From Gammaproteobacteria bacterium (GTDB lineage: Bacteria > Pseudomonadota > Gammaproteobacteria > Eutrophobiales > Eutrophobiaceae): a stretch of DNA of 64,000 nucleotides. The notes below the pieces were generated by a model, which ran no database searches, was not told where the DNA came from, and saw only the letters and a program-made list of their open reading frames with translations. This document shows positions 34,622 through 41,608 of this stretch, one piece after another (position 1 is the stretch's first letter; every line of letters begins with the position of its first letter). A program made the position numbers and the translations under genes. The stretch lies in assembly GCA_965243205.1 (NCBI GenBank), contig CBDEUK010000002.1:1632001-1696000 (forward strand), in the 5' to 3' direction.

Positions 34622-36127
34622 TTAGAAGGATACATCCCACTGCACTCGGAATCGGTTATCGCTAAGGTCACGATTTACTAAACCATCTTCCAAAGTTAAA
34701 TAAGAAAAGTCCGCAGTAAGCTTGTTGTTATGCCCTGCAAAAAACCAGTTTGCACCGAGAGTGAACTCCTCTCGCTCATTGTCTCGAGAAATATCTGTGC
34801 CATTCGGTTCTTCAACAAAAGCGTAACGAGCCGCAAATTCGAGCTCTTTAGGTATAGCAGGAATCAAATGATGGAAAAAATAACCTGATTGTACATACGC
34901 GCCGGTTAAATCACTTGAAGTATTATTGACGGTGTCATCAATTGTTTTCCAATGGTATTCCTCTTGGAACGAGAAACCTTTCCATTTGAAAGCAAAACCT
35001 TGTGTGTATTGCTCAATTTCATACTGACCGTCAGCGGCAGTACTTGGACTAGCAAATCCATCTAAATTACCACAACCACTGGATGACCAACGAGTACAAC
35101 GGCCTTTGTTAGATGCTGCTGCAAATGAAAGACTGCCTGTTGGTTTTTCTGTGAACTCTACGTCCGTTTGACGCCACTTTAGATCACGACCAAGGAAGTT
35201 CCATTGCAGACGACCCATGTACAATAAGTCACCATCATCGTTACGAACACCGCGACCTTCACCGGTAAAAATACCGGCCCAATAACGTAAATCTGCTGGG
35301 GTATCTTTAAATAAACGACCGCGTACTTGGGCACCCACTTGACGATCAATTGTAAATATTCGATTCACAATGGAACGTTCAACAAACTGTTGGCGACCTG
35401 AAGAATCCACACGTTCACGGTTGTAATCAATTTTCCATTGACCAACACGCAAACCCAGCGCTTCGTATTTATCCAAAGTTATACGCCAATCAATTACTCT
35501 GGCACTCGAACTAGAACTACTGCTACTGCTGCTTCGAGTTGGCTGAAGGTCAACTTCGAAATAATATCCAATCCAAGGTCTAAACCCATGTCCGCCAATT
35601 TTCATGCGTAATCGACGTGCTTCAAATGTATTCTCAGTATCTGATTCGAAATCGCCGATATCACGAGGGTCACTTCTGGTTGGAGATGTGAAACGTAATT
35701 GGGCACGCCATTGCAGGTTTGTTTGCCAGTTCCCGTCACGGGATTCAAGGCGGAAACCCTTTTTGCCATGACTCACTTTTACAGGAAACTCATCCTCTAC
35801 CTTTTTAGCAACTTTATCTTCAGTTGATTTTTCAACCTTAGCTTCAATTGTTTTATCGAGCTTTTCATCGATAGCCTTATTAACTTTACGTTCAACAATT
35901 TCTTCAACTTGAGCATCAGAAGCAGCCGGACTCTCGAAATCTTTGCTAGATAGACTTGGTTTCTGTATTAATTCGTCATATTGTTCTTGGGTGATGGCAC
36001 CATTGCCCAATAGAATATCAAGAAGCGCTTTATCTGCTGAATATACGATTGTAGTTGCTAGCATAAGCACAAAAATCGCACATCCTCGATAAAAATCAGT
36101 ATGAGAGCGAAATAAATTCATAAGCAA
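34622..36127 (-). CDS. Phosphate-selective porin (OprO/OprP family)
   Basis: Signal peptide, FEARRLRMKIGG, GQWK, LGANWFFAGHNNKL, C-terminal Phe; sits in the Pho cluster with Pho boxes upstream. Confidence 0.82.
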   Translation of the reverse strand: MLMNLFRSHTDFYRGCAIFVLMLATTIVYSADKALLDILLGNGAITQEQYDELIQKPSLSSKDFESPAASDAQVEEIVERKVNKAIDEKLDKTIEAKVEKSTEDKVAKKVEDEFPVKVSHGKKGFRLESRDGNWQTNLQWRAQLRFTSPTRSDPRDIGDFESDTENTFEARRLRMKIGGHGFRPWIGYYFEVDLQPTRSSSSSSSSSSARVIDWRITLDKYEALGLRVGQWKIDYNRERVDSSGRQQFVERSIVNRIFTIDRQVGAQVRGRLFKDTPADLRYWAGIFTGEGRGVRNDDGDLLYMGRLQWNFLGRDLKWRQTDVEFTEKPTGSLSFAAASNKGRCTRWSSSGCGNLDGFASPSTAADGQYEIEQYTQGFAFKWKGFSFQEEYHWKTIDDTVNNTSSDLTGAYVQSGYFFHHLIPAIPKELEFAARYAFVEEPNGTDISRDNEREEFTLGANWFFAGHNNKLTADFSYLTLEDGLVNRDLSDNRFRVQWDVSF

Positions 36128-36311: not shown

Positions 36312-36344
36312 ATAAAAAACCCCGCAGAAAGCGGGGTTTTTTAT
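36312..36344 (-). terminator. Intrinsic terminator closing the redox operon
   Basis: ataaaaaaccccgc-agaaa-gcggggttttttat, 14-bp stem, just downstream of the globin stop. Confidence 0.88.
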
Positions 36345-36365: not shown

Positions 36366-36773
36366 TTAACTATTGGCAGCTTCTTTCATCACTGTTGCTA
36401 ATGTTACGTAAGTGTCAGTCCAAGCACCTTTCACGTCATCTGTGAAAGCGTCACCTAAACCGGCACCTAGTGTCCAAAGTAAAGCTTCAGCAACCGTATC
36501 GTAGTGCTCGTCCTTCACGCCATAATCAACATGCCGTTTTCCCAAATCTTGAACGGCAGGAACAATGGTATCTAACTTATCCAAACTATTGACTGCAGTT
36601 CCGATCATTTTCATTAATTTCTTACCTTGTTCAACCATGTCACCATTGAATAAGGATTTTAATTCAGGATCGAGCTCAAATAATTTACCGTAAAATAATT
36701 CTGCTGCTTTATCGGAAATAGGCACAACCTGTGCCCAGGTATCTTTTACTAACGTGACTTGTTCTGGTGTCAT
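36366..36773 (-). CDS. Single-domain globin (flavohemoglobin/Vitreoscilla Hb-like, no reductase domain)
   Basis: LFYGKLF (TyrB10), LKSLF (PheCD1), EQGKKL (GlnE7), LGKRHVDYGV (HisF8); no signal peptide. Confidence 0.9.
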   Translation of the reverse strand: MTPEQVTLVKDTWAQVVPISDKAAELFYGKLFELDPELKSLFNGDMVEQGKKLMKMIGTAVNSLDKLDTIVPAVQDLGKRHVDYGVKDEHYDTVAEALLWTLGAGLGDAFTDDVKGAWTDTYVTLATVMKEAANS

Positions 36774-36776
36774 TTG

Positions 36777-37154
36777 TTATTCCTCAGTTTTGTAACTCTT
36801 AGCCAACTCAACCATATAATCGACCGCGGCCTTAATTTCTTGATCTGTTAAATGTGGATTACCACCTCGTTCTGGCATCATTGCGTCATCTGGTCCAAAA
36901 AAACCTTCGATAGCATGTTGATATAAAACCTCTTTACCTTTTGCTATACGAAAACCCCATTGCTCGTAATCCAATGGGATTGGCGCATCGGCGACGCCCC
37001 AACCATGGCAACCCTCACAGGTTCCTAACCAGATTTCTTTTCCTTTTTGTAAATGTGGATCATCAAAATCACGATAACGGTCAGCATCTGCATGAACACT
37101 GACCGTGCTTAAGGAAAATGATGAAATCAAAATAAACGCTCTTAAGCCGAGCAT
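36777..37154 (-). CDS. Periplasmic cytochrome c5-family monoheme protein
   Basis: Signal peptide, CEGCH, HAIEGF, MMPERGG, AAVDYM. Confidence 0.88.
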   Translation of the reverse strand: MLGLRAFILISSFSLSTVSVHADADRYRDFDDPHLQKGKEIWLGTCEGCHGWGVADAPIPLDYEQWGFRIAKGKEVLYQHAIEGFFGPDDAMMPERGGNPHLTDQEIKAAVDYMVELAKSYKTEE

Positions 37155-37160
37155 GTTTAT

Positions 37161-37745
37161 TTACCCTTCGATTGGGATACGAATCACAACACCACCCATC
37201 ACATCACCCAGTTTGAAATCAGTCTTAGGTGTGTCTTTGTGTTCGTTGTGGCAACTCACGCAAACAGGCGCAACCGCAGGATCAGGATAAACAGCGGTAA
37301 AGTAGTTCACGCCACCTAACTCTTCAGTGGTGTAATAGTTTTCACCTTTGTTATCAAAAATGTACTGAAGACCTGTTTTTTCAGCATCGGTTTTTGGTGC
37401 GTTTTGTTTATTGATTGGCCATAGTGATTGCAAAGAATAACTGAAGGCATCGGTTTTCTTAGCCACTGACTCTGAACCAAAACGAAACATTTGTGCAGGT
37501 AATACTAATGCTTTGTCATCTTCAAAATGTTCACTGGCTTTGATGACTTTTTCTTTTTTCACCAAGCGGTTTACGATCTTTTTCGTATAAACTGCACGGT
37601 CTGTAGACATAACTAAATGTAACCAGTCCGCCATTTGCTTTGGGGTAAACATTGCAGTATCAGCAACCTCTGAAGAAACCGACACAGGCAAACTAACTGC
37701 TGCAGCGATAACGGAAGTTGCAATAAGTTTTTTAAATTTACTCAT
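37161..37745 (-). CDS. Periplasmic Tll0287-like (DUF3365) heme c protein
   Basis: Signal peptide, LPAQMF, WPINKQNAP, C-terminal CVSCH, FKLGDVMGGVVIRIP. Confidence 0.78.
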   Translation of the reverse strand: MSKFKKLIATSVIAAAVSLPVSVSSEVADTAMFTPKQMADWLHLVMSTDRAVYTKKIVNRLVKKEKVIKASEHFEDDKALVLPAQMFRFGSESVAKKTDAFSYSLQSLWPINKQNAPKTDAEKTGLQYIFDNKGENYYTTEELGGVNYFTAVYPDPAVAPVCVSCHNEHKDTPKTDFKLGDVMGGVVIRIPIEG

Positions 37746-37778
37746 CTTTTCTTCTCCTGGGTTTAAAAAATTAATAGA

Positions 37779-39290
37779 TCATTCAGTTTCATTTTCTGCA
37801 TCAACTGAATCTGAATCTTGTTCTTGTTGCTCACGAAGTTTCTCTTGCTCGCGCAACTTACGACGTTTCTCTTCTGCTTCTATGGCACGTACCTCAGCCA
37901 TCTCAATACTTTTTATGTGCACAGAAGGTTTGCCATGAAAATTGTTTTTAATTAATTCTGGATCGGCTAAAGAATCCGTACTAAAACCAAGACCATGACA
38001 ATTCATACAAACTGGTCTTTGCATTTTTTCATTCGGTTTTAATGTCATGTTTTGATTGTGTTCGACTAAGCCCATATAGAACTCGCCATCAAAAAATTCT
38101 TTTTCAATACGCGGCATATGACAGGTAGCACAAGTAACGCCTGTTCCTTCTTTAGCTTCACCCGATAATTCTTTTTTCCACAAATCATGATGAGGAGAAT
38201 CGATATAGGCCAAGCTATGTTCATCTTTATGACAACTTAAACATGCTTCGACCTTGGCTTTTTTGATATCAAACTTATGAGCTGAATGACAGCTATTACA
38301 GGATAGATTTTTATCATGCGCTTCTTTTTTCATCGGCAAGCGCGCTAAGGAAGGTGACATTGGGTCCAAATCAAATTTAAGATTATCTTTGTCCAAACGC
38401 ATTCCATGTTTGCCTCCTAAAAAGCCTTTTACTTCTTCAGAATGACAAGTCGTGCATTGTTCTTGAGTCGGTTTATCGATCCAAACCAGTTTCTTATCTT
38501 CTTTTTCTTTTCCAACTTCTTTTTGATGACAAGCGGTACAATTCACGCCCGCATTGGCATGCGCCGTTTGAAACCATTCATCGATAATATGTGTATCGTT
38601 TGCTTTATCTTTAGGCGCATCTAATGCAGTTCTTTCTAACTTTTCTAAAGGATATTGATCAATCGGATAACCTGGAAAGATAGGTGCTATTTCAAGGAAA
38701 TTTAAATCAGGAAACGAATCAAGTTTTTCTAAAATATCGGCTTCACCAACATGCTTGGCAAGGAAGTCTTCGTATAAAGCTTGGTTATCATGATAATTAT
38801 GACAGCCGGCTGAAGCACAAGTATCAAAGGCCATACCTTCATGACTCGGCCGTTCTTCAGCGATATCCTCATGACATTTAAAACAATAATCGATAGGTAA
38901 TGTAAGCCCCATGTCATGAGTAATTTCAGGTCGATGTTCTACATGACAAGTCACACAATAACGTGCATCTAATTTCGCTAAACGATCTGCGTTACGTGGA
39001 TCTGTAAATTTACTTTTAGGGTGTTTGTCTCTGGCTTCTTTTAAGGCATTACCATGACACTTTACACAAGAATCTTGTAATGCTTCTTTCATCACCTTGG
39101 CATCTTCAAACACTTCGGTATGACAAGCATTACAGGCGAGTTCTATTTGATAATGACCATGACTGGTCTTACCTGGTAAGAACAACGTTTTATCTGCAGT
39201 TTCAGTATTAAATTTCATTGCATAATGTGTTGCAAAAGCAATTGTCAAAACTATCCAAACAACCCATAAAATTGTGTTTCGTTTAAGCAT
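37779..39290 (-). CDS. Membrane-anchored multiheme cytochrome c (10 CxxCH + 1 CxxxxCH)
   Basis: CNACH, CVKCH, CVTCH, CFKCH, CASAGCH, CTACH, CTTCH, CNSCH, CLSCH, CATCH, CMNCH; N-terminal TM. Confidence 0.9.
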   Translation of the reverse strand: MLKRNTILWVVWIVLTIAFATHYAMKFNTETADKTLFLPGKTSHGHYQIELACNACHTEVFEDAKVMKEALQDSCVKCHGNALKEARDKHPKSKFTDPRNADRLAKLDARYCVTCHVEHRPEITHDMGLTLPIDYCFKCHEDIAEERPSHEGMAFDTCASAGCHNYHDNQALYEDFLAKHVGEADILEKLDSFPDLNFLEIAPIFPGYPIDQYPLEKLERTALDAPKDKANDTHIIDEWFQTAHANAGVNCTACHQKEVGKEKEDKKLVWIDKPTQEQCTTCHSEEVKGFLGGKHGMRLDKDNLKFDLDPMSPSLARLPMKKEAHDKNLSCNSCHSAHKFDIKKAKVEACLSCHKDEHSLAYIDSPHHDLWKKELSGEAKEGTGVTCATCHMPRIEKEFFDGEFYMGLVEHNQNMTLKPNEKMQRPVCMNCHGLGFSTDSLADPELIKNNFHGKPSVHIKSIEMAEVRAIEAEEKRRKLREQEKLREQQEQDSDSVDAENETE

Positions 39291-39320
39291 TGGTTTTTTC
39301 TTTTTTTCTGGTCTTAATGC

Positions 39321-41306
39321 CTAAAAGTAATACGTCTTAAATATGTGGAAACCCAGTAACACTGGTAATGGCCAAAACAATAAAATATGTAACCAAAGCC
39401 CAAGTGAACGAACTTGTTTCACTAAAGAAGCTTCTAAATTGTGTTCCATCGCGATCACACTAGCGACGATAGCGCCCACTAAAATTAATCCGGTGAAAGA
39501 CATCATCAACATAAAGTTCAAGTTTTCACCCAAACGGAAACCGGTATGAACAAGCAAAACAAAAATGGCTAGACCGCCAACGATGGCATGCAATAAACGC
39601 CAGACAGGAAAGTCGCCCCATTTAAACCATGTAAAGCGTTTACGTAAAGAAAGTAGTAAGACTAATACTGAGATACCTAATAAGGTAAAACCTGTTATCT
39701 GTTTATAAAGACTCGTGGTCCAAACAACATCGTATTGATAAATCTGTTGCACGGATGTGTTATAAGGAATTGCTGGAAATAAATAAGCGATCAATGCCAT
39801 GAGAATAAAGATGGCTGAACTTAAAAATAAAGTTCTATAAGCCTTAACGGGATCAAGTTTTACACCCCCAAGCAAATTAGCGAGCAAAGGCTTGCATGAA
39901 CCACAAGTTGTGCCTGCATTGGTTTTGTCGCAAAGCGAAACCATAGAATCACAACCAGACTTAATGGCAGAAGTTAACTGACCACGAGTGACTGAATTAC
40001 AAGAACAGATTGTTGCCTCAGTAGGCCATCGGCTGATGTCTTCTAAATCATCATCGCCCCACAATGAGCCAGTTTCTTGAAATTGATATAACGTCCACGG
40101 AAAAAATAATTTTCCTTTTTTTACTTGTTCGCGAAGTTTAATTAACTCAGGCCATTCACCAATTGCGATCACGCCAACTACCTGACCCCGATAAACATTT
40201 AACTTTCGATAAACAGTATCTTCTTGATAAACATAACTGGTATAAGACACAGCGCTATCACTCACGTCTCCCATACTAAAAACCGCTTGTCCTACAACCT
40301 TTAAACTAGTGGCGAGTACCGTTCCTTTATATTCAGTTGGAATGGAAAGGATATCTCTGGCTGCGATTGAAGCCTGTTCATAACCAGGAGCGACTATGCC
40401 GTAGACTTCGCCTTGATGTTCACAACATTCCCCAATCGCATAGATATCAGGATCGGATGTTTGCATCAGATCGTTGACTTTAATCCCTTTGCCATAAGCC
40501 AGCCCTGCTTCTTTAGCTAGATCAATATTCGGTCTTATGCCTGCTGATATGATTAAGGTATCGCAATCAAGGATTTCGCCAGAGCGCAAAACAATCGATT
40601 CGACTTTGGTTCCACCTTGAATTTCCTGGATACTATTTTGTAGGTACACATTTATGCCAAGTTTTTCGACTTCCTCTTGAAATAGCGCTGCGCCATCATC
40701 ATCCAGCTGACGAAACATCAAACGGTTGTTATGTTCAATAACCGTAACTTGCGTAGAAAAACGCTGCATAGCTCTGGCGGCTTCTAAACCAAGCAACCCA
40801 CCACCTAAAATAACGGTATTACGACTGAGGGTTCTTCTAGCGATTAAATGTTCTGTATCTTTTAAATCACGAAATTGATAAACACGCTTTAGATTAATGC
40901 CAGGTATGCTCTTAGGCACATAAGGACTCGAACCTGTTGCTAAAATTAGCTTTTCATATTCTTGAATATTTCCAAATTCATCGATAACGTTTTTATTTGC
41001 TCTGTCAATCTCGACAACCTTGCAGTTATAACGAGTAATAACAGGATCAAAATCGAGTACATCAGATGAGTAATAAATATCTTCTTGATTGATATCACCC
41101 GCAAGCAAAGAAGAAAGTTGAACTCGGTTATATGGCTGCCAAGGCTCATCGCCATAAATAACGATCGGATGATGCAGAGACTGTCTATGCAACTCCTCTA
41201 ATATCCGAATACCAACAGGCCCAGTCCCTACGACCACAATCGGTTTTTTGCCATTCAATAACACTTTTTCCGTAGTGCCATGAAAATTATCTACAGCGAC
41301 ATTCAC
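39321..41306 (-). CDS. NirB-like FAD/NAD(P)H oxidoreductase + BFD-like [2Fe-2S] domain fused to a C-terminal multi-TM domain
   Basis: VVVGTGPVG, YNRVQLS, LILATGS, LGGGLLGLEAA, IYAIGEC, LKVVG; CSC...CGSC; about five C-terminal TM helices with four His; no siroheme/4Fe-4S domain. Confidence 0.85.
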   Translation of the reverse strand: MNVAVDNFHGTTEKVLLNGKKPIVVVGTGPVGIRILEELHRQSLHHPIVIYGDEPWQPYNRVQLSSLLAGDINQEDIYYSSDVLDFDPVITRYNCKVVEIDRANKNVIDEFGNIQEYEKLILATGSSPYVPKSIPGINLKRVYQFRDLKDTEHLIARRTLSRNTVILGGGLLGLEAARAMQRFSTQVTVIEHNNRLMFRQLDDDGAALFQEEVEKLGINVYLQNSIQEIQGGTKVESIVLRSGEILDCDTLIISAGIRPNIDLAKEAGLAYGKGIKVNDLMQTSDPDIYAIGECCEHQGEVYGIVAPGYEQASIAARDILSIPTEYKGTVLATSLKVVGQAVFSMGDVSDSAVSYTSYVYQEDTVYRKLNVYRGQVVGVIAIGEWPELIKLREQVKKGKLFFPWTLYQFQETGSLWGDDDLEDISRWPTEATICSCNSVTRGQLTSAIKSGCDSMVSLCDKTNAGTTCGSCKPLLANLLGGVKLDPVKAYRTLFLSSAIFILMALIAYLFPAIPYNTSVQQIYQYDVVWTTSLYKQITGFTLLGISVLVLLLSLRKRFTWFKWGDFPVWRLLHAIVGGLAIFVLLVHTGFRLGENLNFMLMMSFTGLILVGAIVASVIAMEHNLEASLVKQVRSLGLWLHILLFWPLPVLLGFHIFKTYYF

Positions 41307-41339
41307 GTGATTTTAAGTTTCTTAATTTGTATTTTTTGC

Positions 41340-41390
41340 AAAAAAAAACGTCGTTACATAAATCAATTAACTGATTCTGCAAACGACGCC
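41340..41390 (-). terminator. Leader (attenuator) terminator upstream of the redox operon
   Basis: Minus strand GGCGTCGTT-TGCA-GAATCAGTT/AATTGATTT-ATGT-AACGACG followed by 9 T; lies between promoter and first gene. Confidence 0.72.
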
Positions 41391-41397
41391 TTTGTCG
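41384..41397 (-). promoter_or_regulatory. ANTAR (NasR/NasT)-type RNA hairpin
   Basis: CGAC-AAAGGC-GTCG: hexaloop with G at position 4, 3' arm shared with the terminator 5' arm. Confidence 0.65.
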
Positions 41398-41469
41398 ATA
41401 CCAATGAAGTTCAATATAACGAGTATTTGGTTACGATTGAAAACGCCCATCGGCTATATCTGGAATATG

Positions 41470-41486
41470 AGCAGTATGCGTGCCAA
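41470..41486 (-). promoter_or_regulatory. Sigma54 (-24/-12) promoter
   Basis: Minus strand TTGGCACGCATACTGCT matches TGGCAC-N5-(T/C)TGC. Confidence 0.82.
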
Positions 41487-41500
41487 CCAAAAAATATTTA

Positions 41501-41513
41501 TAAATAACTGATA
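41501..41513 (-). promoter_or_regulatory. IHF binding site
   Basis: Minus strand TATCAGTTATTTA matches WATCAR-N4-TTR, located between enhancer-like sites and the sigma54 promoter. Confidence 0.6.
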
Positions 41514-41558
41514 TTTAAGCTAATTTTTTATTATCAAAAATGGCTTTTCATGTTGCGC

Positions 41559-41608
41559 TGCACATATAGAGAGCGCTAGCACCAATATAAAGCGATTAGA
41601 TTGGTGCA
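41559..41608. promoter_or_regulatory. NtrC-like enhancer sites
   Basis: TGCACATATAGAGAGCG, AGCACCAATATAAAGCG and half-site TTGGTGCA resemble TGCACCA-N3-TGGTGCA, ~75-120 bp upstream of the -24 box. Confidence 0.55.

Follow-up and report, generated by a model that had tools for sequence, protein, structure and literature searches.

We analysed a 64,000-nucleotide stretch of a gammaproteobacterial genome (assembly GCA_965243205.1, contig CBDEUK010000002.1, positions 1,632,001 to 1,696,000; hereafter the window), in which five co-oriented genes on the minus strand form an operon that we call the module. The first gene (41306..39321) encodes a flavoprotein of 661 residues fused to a membrane domain (A661), and is followed by the genes for the eleven-haem cytochrome B503 (39290..37779; 503 residues), the haem-Cache protein C194 (37745..37161; 194 residues), the monohaem cytochrome D125 (37154..36777; 125 residues) and the globin E135 (36773..36366; 135 residues). 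The successive gaps measure 30, 33, 6 and 3 bp. Behind the last gene lies an intrinsic terminator with a 14-pair stem, 6 G-C and A/T runs on both sides (36312-36344, strand not assigned). No NIR_SIR or molybdopterin domain was found by Pfam in any protein of the operon. An earlier reading of this DNA (the original prediction) had announced this gene arrangement with its end terminator, the lack of sirohaem nitrite reductase and molybdopterin domains, and an architecture joining flavin adenine dinucleotide (FAD)/NADH and [2Fe-2S] sites, a membrane part of haem b type and periplasmic c-haems in one 11-haem and two monohaem cytochromes with a globin of TyrB10/GlnE7 type. The open reading frames (ORFs), hairpin, Pfam domains, histidine pairs, haem motifs and conserved residues described below bear all of this out. 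As far as sequence can tell, the five-gene operon is confirmed as real, since a gene order kept across phyla is more than chance; there is good support for its architecture, and its chemistry is what we infer from it. We propose that the module belongs to the nitrate-assimilation regulon as an accessory branch.

Conservation of the module

Scanning one genome per species for the pattern confirmed at least 573 loci; all counts over 80 given below refer to the best 80 of these. An ORF for the membrane domain stands directly upstream of the B503 homologue in 80 of 80 loci, and the flavoprotein part is present in 78. The C194 homologue follows B503 in 76, whereas the globin is found in 53 and D125 in 28; several of the absences coincide with the end of a contig. 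The order A-B-C-(D)-(E) recurs in Gamma- and Betaproteobacteria, Verrucomicrobiota, Planctomycetota, Acidobacteriota, Myxococcota, Poribacteria, Binatia and Lentisphaerae, with the globin lying upstream instead in three Acidobacteriota and Myxococcota loci. The flavoprotein, eleven-haem and haem-Cache genes are a core kept in order. In an even sample of the window's class (400 genomes, 309 genera; hereafter the class sample), a B503 homologue was detected in 25 genomes (about 6%) belonging to 22 genera, 24 of them as strong matches and one as a partial match.

A flavoprotein fused to a five-helix membrane domain

A661 contains the Pfam domains Pyr_redox_2 (2.4e-56), Rubredoxin_C and Fer2_BFD (4.7e-10), and its N-terminal 480 residues match positions 1-466 of the 794 positions of the NirB model TIGR02374 (1.8e-121, 407 bits for a cut-off of 578). 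The BFD cysteines C434, C436, C468 and C471 are invariant in 58 homologues. The last 170 residues form five hydrophobic helices carrying two HisX13His pairs, H573/H587 on the third transmembrane helix and H640/H654 on the fifth. H573, H587 and H640 are likewise invariant in 58 homologues and H654 is at least 90% conserved; in a smaller alignment H654 is present in 16 of the 17 valid rows. With a cytoplasmic N-terminus and five helices, one histidine pair would lie near each membrane face and the two would make up a transmembrane electron path. The alignment used for folding and searching (A4) also included a mis-framed ORF with 18% identity (row L076), which is to be ignored; at the Bryobacterales locus from which it comes (L076; 7456-8031, 1-1741) the membrane-domain ORF is apparently frameshifted and the sole nearby flavoprotein gene is a divergently transcribed nirB.

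The window's own membrane domain matched no Pfam family. When the domains of 18 members were scanned singly, sub-threshold matches to Ni_hydr_CYTB (6 of 18, best 2.3e-6), DUF4405 (5 of 18) and Ferric_reduct (2 of 18) were obtained, all of which are families of di-haem membrane cytochromes b. The AlphaFold2 (AF2) model is a helical bundle with a predicted local distance difference test score (pLDDT) of 86.6. Its structural neighbours include CybB (5oc0, Z 10.7), FdnI (1kqg_C, Z 9.1), HyaC (4gd3, Z 8.9) and a designed two-haem bundle (Z 10.9), and because talin-type bundles reach an equal Z the fold can just be called consistent with a di-haem cytochrome b. The membrane-domain profile matched no PDB sequence, and a protein-atlas search with the domain gave no score of 0.9 or higher. 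A profile search of 1.84 billion representatives returned 1013 proteins with the membrane domain at E <= 0.001. It occupies the very C-terminus in each of the 150 best matches, most of which are 630-690 residues long. Many of the shorter proteins are probably fragments. Split forms of A661 seem to exist as well, and in proteins of about 225 residues (e.g. P0257, P0258 and P0260) the membrane domain starts at about residue 55, with room for a BFD domain ahead of it.

Two further observations concern this protein. Its start codon (region 41262-41306) is doubtful: no clear ribosome-binding site precedes the GTG at 41306, and an in-frame GTG 14 codons downstream, preceded by GGAAAAA, would leave a shorter N-terminus ahead of the GxGxxG motif. 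Cupriavidus necator H16, a well-studied laboratory strain, carries a homologue of the flavoprotein-membrane fusion (CAJ95739.1, P0058); Alcanivorax is another cultured carrier of the module. In the accessible part of one report the nearby tag H16_B0948 is listed with sigma54-type genes whose induction on nitrogen depletion is 20-50 fold, and from that part it could not be mapped to the module (PMC3734047). A tblastn search against plasmids gave no match for this homologue.

An eleven-haem cytochrome with a NrfA-like C-terminal half

B503 starts with an anchor helix and carries 10 CxxCH motifs and one CASAGCH motif, which makes eleven haems; all 11 motifs are invariant across 20 diverse homologues. 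Against PDB sequences its profile matched NrfA (2j7a, 2.6e-10) at the top, followed by the octahaem TvNiR (6e-7), in local pieces. The Pfam model PF02335 scored 17.4 bits, under its cut-off of 24.1, and TIGR03152 had no match in the source genome at E <= 1e-60. In the AF2 model (pLDDT 83) residues 170-460 exceed 90 and residues 40-170 are poor. Foldseek placed HAO-family structures first, with probabilities of 0.96-1.0 and template modelling (TM) scores of 0.19-0.29, and VIA-align superposed KsHAO (4n4j) at Z 7.2 (191 residues within 221-453, root-mean-square deviation 3.9), TvNiR at Z 5.1 and NrfA at Z of about 5.

The relation to NrfA was mapped by hhalign, with a 12-sequence NrfA alignment (E. 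coli NrfA plus 11 NrfA genes from a phylum sample) and a 78-sequence B503 alignment. Residues 249-433 of B503 are colinear with residues 120-319 of E. coli NrfA (probability 94.9%, E 4.4e-8; 87% with E. coli NrfA alone). Haem 6 (C251) falls on NrfA haem 1, the catalytic CWSCK haem, haems 7 and 8 on NrfA haems 2 and 3, and haems 10 and 11 on NrfA haems 4 and 5, while haem 9 is an insertion with no counterpart in NrfA. NrfB matches B503 just at the di-haem stretch 319-358, so that the N-terminal five haems have no demonstrated likeness to NrfB. Conserved histidines outside the haem motifs number 5 in the N-terminal five-haem part and 7 in the C-terminal six-haem part (H180, H244, H295, H338, H358, H367 and H411). 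The C-terminal set fits five bis-His haems and an open haem with two pocket histidines, or equally six bis-His haems. Judged by these alignments, B503 does not belong to NrfA itself; it is a diverged relative of the NrfA/HAO superfamily. In one genome of the class sample, which has no ANTAR match, a 429-residue frame (G190:C117:41209-41808) matches just positions 216-452 of the B503 profile (E 1.1e-35); by this match it is a stand-alone relative of the NrfA-like half.

The N-terminal layout of B503, an anchor helix and then CxxCH haems, is also that of NapC and NrfH, and weak matches to NrfH were recorded (NCBIfam, E 0.0022; Foldseek, 2j7a_C and 2vr0_F with probabilities of 0.11-0.12). For di-haem cytochromes b of the Ni_hydr_CYTB type, quinones are the usual reaction partners. 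The module could accordingly be coupled through the quinone pool, A661 acting as an NADH:quinone reductase and B503 as a NapC/NrfH-like quinol dehydrogenase fused to a reductase. We hold this scheme to be improbable. The NrfH match is not colinear, since residues 22-81 of B503 fall on positions 77-135 of the 138 of the NrfH model, and haem 1 of B503 lacks CxxCHxM, the NrfH haem signature. Moreover, the invariable pairing of the membrane domain with B503 in 80 of 80 loci and its place as the last segment of the protein in all 150 best representatives argue for a dedicated partner.

A haem-Cache protein, a monohaem cytochrome and a globin

C194 is a stand-alone haem-Cache protein (DUF3365/Tll0287, PF11845; 73.2 bits for a cut-off of 24.1), secreted by virtue of an N-terminal hydrophobic leader, with a single CxxCH motif, CVSCH, at residue 162. 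It is encoded by the only haem-Cache gene of the genome. Among the module proteins it is the most conserved, with 45-79% identity across phyla compared to 31-69% for the membrane domain, and 37 positions are invariant in 37 sequences. C194 has no cysteine outside CxxCH and none is conserved among 73 sequences (C194 and 72 module-linked homologues), which makes the Cys/His ligation of Tll0287 and of the P. putida protein impossible for C194. Searched against PDB sequences, C194 gave just a chance ribosomal match (E 0.54) and its profile none, Tll0287 itself not being recovered.

The accessible portion of a recent preprint defines DUF3365/Tll0287 as haem-binding Cache domains, of which about half are stand-alone and described as 'redox-related', with a function hard to delineate and without gene-context patterns (10.64898/2026.02.01.703092). 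The same portion reports family members that are nitric oxide (NO) sensors fused to signalling domains, so a sensory role has to be considered for the module too: the haem-Cache protein would detect NO or the redox state of the periplasm, the cytochromes would set its poise, and there would be no catalytic pathway. We give this very little credence. The operon contains no signalling output domain and none recurs nearby (GGDEF in 6 of 80 loci), a sensor built from 13 haems and a flavoprotein that consumes NADH would be costly, and according to that portion of the preprint stand-alone members are not associated with signalling genes (10.64898/2026.02.01.703092).

The two remaining proteins are optional members. 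D125 is a class I monohaem cytochrome c that carries a leader and is secreted, with a CEGCH motif and a conserved Met93. E135 has no leader; it matches Pfam Globin (4.4e-18) and positions 3-136 of the flavohaemoglobin model NF009805. Y28, Q49 and H81, which we take to be TyrB10, GlnE7 and HisF8 (helix labels by our assignment), are at least 95% conserved in 54 homologues, and Y91 is conserved too. Such residues indicate that E135 is a cytoplasmic single-domain globin of the Hmp or NO-dioxygenase type. The source genome encodes no full-length flavohaemoglobin (Hmp). Outside the window, a 1463-residue frame has two Hmp-like globin segments (G000:C2:737404-738597; NF009805, 1.7e-11 and 3.6e-11) and may be a large globin-coupled sensor.

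Leader elements shared with the nas operon

Upstream of A661, inspection of the minus strand revealed a sigma54-type promoter, TGGCACGCATACTGCT (41470..41485), with GG-N10-GC at -24/-12 spacing. Folding and Rfam alignment identified an ANTAR-type hairpin further downstream (41384..41397, minus strand), CGAC-AAAGGC-GUCG, whose hexaloop has A1 and G4. The 3' arm of this hairpin doubles as part of the stem of an intrinsic terminator (41340..41393, minus strand), which has a long stem and a U9 run and ends about 35 nt ahead of the start codon; this terminator is presumed to be the target of NasT antitermination. The fold of the whole leader has a minimum free energy of -35.2 kcal/mol (z -2.38). 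About 95-135 bp 5' of the promoter lies an inverted repeat, GCACCAAT-N13-ATTGGTGC (41579..41607, minus strand), a candidate site for an enhancer-binding protein. The NtrC binding consensus spans 17 bp, and neither the repeat nor an A/T-rich tract in the leader fits its spacing; with two relatives the region has just a loosely conserved block in common. Hence, of the leader elements that the original prediction had listed, the sigma54 promoter and the ANTAR-like hairpin stand, while the NtrC-like and IHF-like sites were not confirmed. Promoter, hairpin and terminator are kept 5' of the A gene in a genome of the same family (G291) and at locus L001.

The pattern GACAAAG[AG]CGTC occurs at exactly 2 sites in the 2.79-Mb genome, in the leader of the module and in that of the genome's own nrtA/nas operon. 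As about 0.7 chance occurrences are expected, the weight of this finding rests on the leader position that the two sites share. Both leaders comprise a sigma54 promoter, the word TACTCGTTAT, a 4-pair stem with an AAAGGC hexaloop and a T-run terminator, the stem pairs being CGAC/GUCG in the module and GGAC/GUCC in the nas operon. The Rfam models narK and P11, the latter of which we take to be the NasT-dependent nirBD leader of Pseudomonas aeruginosa, align below threshold to the promoter and hairpin of the module leader, and neither matched the leader of the nas operon. The consensus of both models begins with GGCAC...TTGCT-like text (compared with positions 41383-41484 of the window, minus strand), which implies that they partly depict the sigma54 promoter besides the transcribed hairpin; this promoter content may inflate or distort their scores. 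The features that define this class of leaders were all found: a sigma54 promoter, a hairpin with a hexaloop that overlaps an intrinsic terminator, and a genomic ANTAR gene. Read from these cis-elements, the operon would be under nitrogen control.

Association with nitrate assimilation

The ORFs flanking the 80 loci were clustered and each cluster was identified from one representative. The most frequent neighbours are an NrtA-like binding protein and an ABC ATPase (30 of 80 loci each), an ABC permease (27), an ANTAR and receiver regulator of the NasT type (23) and an Alginate_exp-like outer-membrane protein (19), followed by a molybdopterin oxidoreductase (5), a major facilitator superfamily (MFS) transporter (4) and a Ser/Thr kinase-PP2C (4). 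A Methylococcales locus reads nirB, nasT, molybdate transporter, A-B-C-globin, nrtABC and porin, and a Bryobacterales locus reads Mo enzyme, MFS transporter, globin, A-B-C and porin. An ANTAR protein is encoded in 23 of the 24 class-sample genomes with a strong module match, compared to 124 of all 400, with the reservation that relatives are not independent; in 12 of the 24 its gene lies within about 5 kb of the module. Besides the source genome, 21 of the 23 other module genomes encode a NirB above its cut-off (22 of 24 in all), and long single-NIR_SIR frames occur in 4 of 5 genomes of other phyla.

The source genome itself carries, 520 kb away from the module, the series nasT-nasS, leader, nrtA, nrtB, nrtD, narK, kinase/PP2C, nirB (844 residues), nirD, a NasB-like flavoprotein gene and nasA. 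Its single ANTAR gene is this nasT, which adjoins the nas operon. Within the operon a second sigma54-type motif, TGGCACATTCTCTGCT, lies just 5' of nirB (G000:C2:1140964-1140979) and suggests an internal promoter. Textbook nitrate assimilation consists of a transporter, NasA, and NirBD or NirA. That the module might be the sole assimilatory nitrite reductase is ruled out by the complete nas operon and by NirB in 21 of the 23 other module genomes; as NirB coexists with it, the module supplements nitrate assimilation and is no substitute for NirB. The original prediction had tied these genes to nitrate assimilation and had made their conservation as a unit a condition, and both points agree with the gene order, neighbours, ANTAR and NirB co-occurrence and shared leader element reported here. 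On this genomic evidence the module is a widely conserved, uncharacterised part of the nitrate-assimilation regulon.

Outer-membrane proteins were met at several loci. The Alginate_exp-like beta-barrel, found beside the module and nrtABC genes (e.g. at L022, L029, L059, L062 and L072), may be a channel for nitrate or nitrite. In the window, a gene on the minus strand at 34622-36127, positioned between phoBR and the module, encodes a porin assigned to the phosphate-selective O/P family (PF07396, 2.8e-16). This porin contains ten consecutive serines and gives a weak match, under the cut-off, to the ExtI porin of a selenite/tellurite reduction operon (4.2e-13). It looks like a member of the Pho regulon rather than of the module.

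Proposed mechanism

Taken together, we put at about one in two the probability that the operon is an accessory branch of the nitrate-assimilation regulon in which NADH-driven electron export would feed B503 for the reduction of nitrite, NO or hydroxylamine. Under nitrogen limitation and in the presence of nitrate or nitrite, the sigma54 promoter would fire and NasT would allow reading through the leader terminator. A661 would oxidise cytoplasmic NAD(P)H and pass electrons through FAD and [2Fe-2S] to two stacked b-haems of its own membrane domain, and from there, on the periplasmic side, to the eleven c-haems of membrane-anchored B503. As a diverged module of NrfA/HAO type, the C-terminal half of this cytochrome would be the catalytic end, where nitrite, NO and/or hydroxylamine formed or escaping in the course of nitrate assimilation would be reduced, probably to ammonium. 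C194 and D125 would serve as bound or shuttling redox partners. In the cytoplasm, E135 would dioxygenate NO and would probably be re-reduced by the flavin/[2Fe-2S] part of A661, as Flp does for Bjgb. Since electron export would dissipate membrane potential, a protective or scavenging role suits this scheme better than respiration. The direction of electron flow, the contact between A661 and B503, the catalytic haem, the substrate and regulation in vivo are in this scheme what we infer from sequence.

Several observations weigh against this proposal. The fold-search scores of the membrane domain (Z up to 10.9) and of B503 (Z 7.2) both lie within the unspecific range of the tool. The exact hairpin word is found 5' of the A gene in just 8 of 80 loci, and the Rfam matches are under gathering (narK RF03032, 25.4 compared to 43.2 bits; P11 RF00625, 20.8 compared to 70 bits). 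NirB, being present in the source genome and in 21 of the 23 other module genomes, leaves no genomic need for a second nitrite reductase. A stand-alone haem-Cache protein that was tested bound NO weakly according to the accessible portion of the preprint, that protein being of the Cys/His type, unlike C194 (10.64898/2026.02.01.703092). At the presumed active site, B503 has no CxxCK, the CWSCK of NrfA aligning to CTACH at haem 6, and the catalytic residues are not kept: Y216 aligns with H338, E215 with A337, H264 with S365 and Q263 with D364. H367 stands two residues past S365, in a loop where the alignment is uncertain by a few residues. We take Tyr216 and His264 of E. coli NrfA to be catalytic, and its Ca2+ ligands are not kept in the alignment either. 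Variants of NrfA with CxxCH exist. Lastly, with 12 conserved non-motif histidines for 11 haems, all haems of B503 could be bis-His and the protein a pure wire.

The last two points lead to another explanation, in which B503 is a mere wire and the reactive site resides in C194 or in a partner encoded elsewhere, the acceptor possibly being oxygen or reactive oxygen species, a metal, periplasmic protein repair or redox poising on nitrate. Besides the sufficiency of the conserved histidines and the loss of the NrfA residues, it can draw on the conservation of C194, the best kept protein of the module, and on the electron export by Fre-MsrQ-MsrP, which serves protein repair. The label 'redox-related' that the accessible portion of the preprint gives to stand-alone haem-Cache proteins points the same way (10.64898/2026.02.01.703092). 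However, such a wire would not account for the strong and specific link to nrt, nasT and nirB with the shared NasT-type leader, for the NO-dioxygenase-type globin in the operon at 53 of 80 loci, or for a NrfA/HAO module that is colinear and keeps a haem at the catalytic position. We therefore regard the wire as unlikely, if the strongest of the competing explanations, and retain the reduction of N-oxides by B503 as our proposal.

In a bolder form, which we advance tentatively, A661, B503 and C194 would constitute an unrecognised NADH-driven, periplasm-facing multihaem N-oxide reductase that makes ammonium from nitrite, NO and hydroxylamine. Assimilatory handling of nitrite and NO would then have a third route beside the sirohaem enzymes NirBD and NirA, present in at least 573 species from many phyla, with a new His-rich variant of the NrfA/HAO active site at haem 6; the large stand-alone haem-Cache family would acquire a first physiological role. 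Whatever its substrate, the module is a conserved multihaem, NADH-consuming addition to the nitrate-assimilation regulon. If periplasmic reduction of nitrite, NO or hydroxylamine is its function, it would change the view of how aerobes growing on nitrate avoid nitrosative self-poisoning and nitrogen loss. The NrfA/HAO superfamily would gain a new donor, the flavoprotein-haem-b fusion, and a variant of its active site. The stand-alone haem-Cache proteins, whose role is left open in the accessible portion of the preprint (10.64898/2026.02.01.703092), would obtain one that can be tested.

Comparison with known systems

The original prediction had stated that no characterised system has this composition, and a full-text literature search likewise returned no description of the module or of a characterised complex composed in this way. 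The words operon, multihaem and nitrate are absent from the accessible portion of the haem-Cache preprint (10.64898/2026.02.01.703092). New here are the colinear mapping of B503 onto NrfA, the finding that the leader element shared by the two operons is unique to them genome-wide, the co-occurrence with ANTAR and NirB, the weak cytochrome b matches and the link to the haem-Cache preprint.

The closest likeness of B503 is to NrfA and NrfHA, TvNiR and epsilon-Hao: its C-terminal half is colinear with the five NrfA haems, and it is periplasmic and membrane-anchored like NrfH-NrfA. It differs from NrfA in having eleven haems, owing to one insertion and five additional N-terminal haems, in carrying CxxCH at the catalytic position, and in not conserving the Tyr, His and Ca2+ residues. 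The donor would be an NADH flavoprotein/haem-b fusion instead of quinol or NrfB, and the control elements are assimilatory (sigma54/NasT) where those of NrfA belong to anaerobic respiration.

The narK-bjgb-flp-nasC system of Bradyrhizobium resembles the module by its single-domain Hmp-type globin and its NAD(P)H flavoprotein. According to the part of the report accessible to us, the globin Bjgb and the flavoprotein Flp are co-expressed with nitrate-assimilation genes under NasT-type control and handle NO derived from assimilation, and the system as described there lacks a haem-b domain in the membrane and contains neither a multihaem cytochrome nor a haem-Cache protein (PMC4724949). In the source genome, moreover, the nitrate reductase sits in another operon, and across loci the globin is optional (53 of 80) whereas the A-B-C core is constant.

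Proteins of the NOX and ferric-reductase-domain type, Fre-MsrQ-MsrP, and CybB, FdnI and HyaC share with the predicted layout of A661 an NAD(P)H flavin site, two transmembrane b-haems on two histidine pairs, or delivery to the periplasm. Unlike NOX and Fre-MsrQ, A661 has no FNR-type domain, its flavoprotein being of the NirB/pyridine-nucleotide-disulphide type with a BFD [2Fe-2S] cluster. Its membrane domain has five helices and reaches no family cut-off, and its acceptor would be a multihaem cytochrome. C194, compared with other stand-alone sCache_haem proteins, is a secreted single-domain member with CxxCH and, unlike Tll0287, without any other cysteine.

Many databases label A661 homologues 'nitrite reductase (NADH) large subunit'. 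Together with 'cytochrome c3 family', this label is misleading, which bears on the annotation of nitrogen-cycle genes in metagenomes. The true NirBD of the source genome is encoded elsewhere, and A661 shares with NirB the FAD/NAD domains and the BFD cluster, the sirohaem/[4Fe-4S] half being replaced by the membrane domain.

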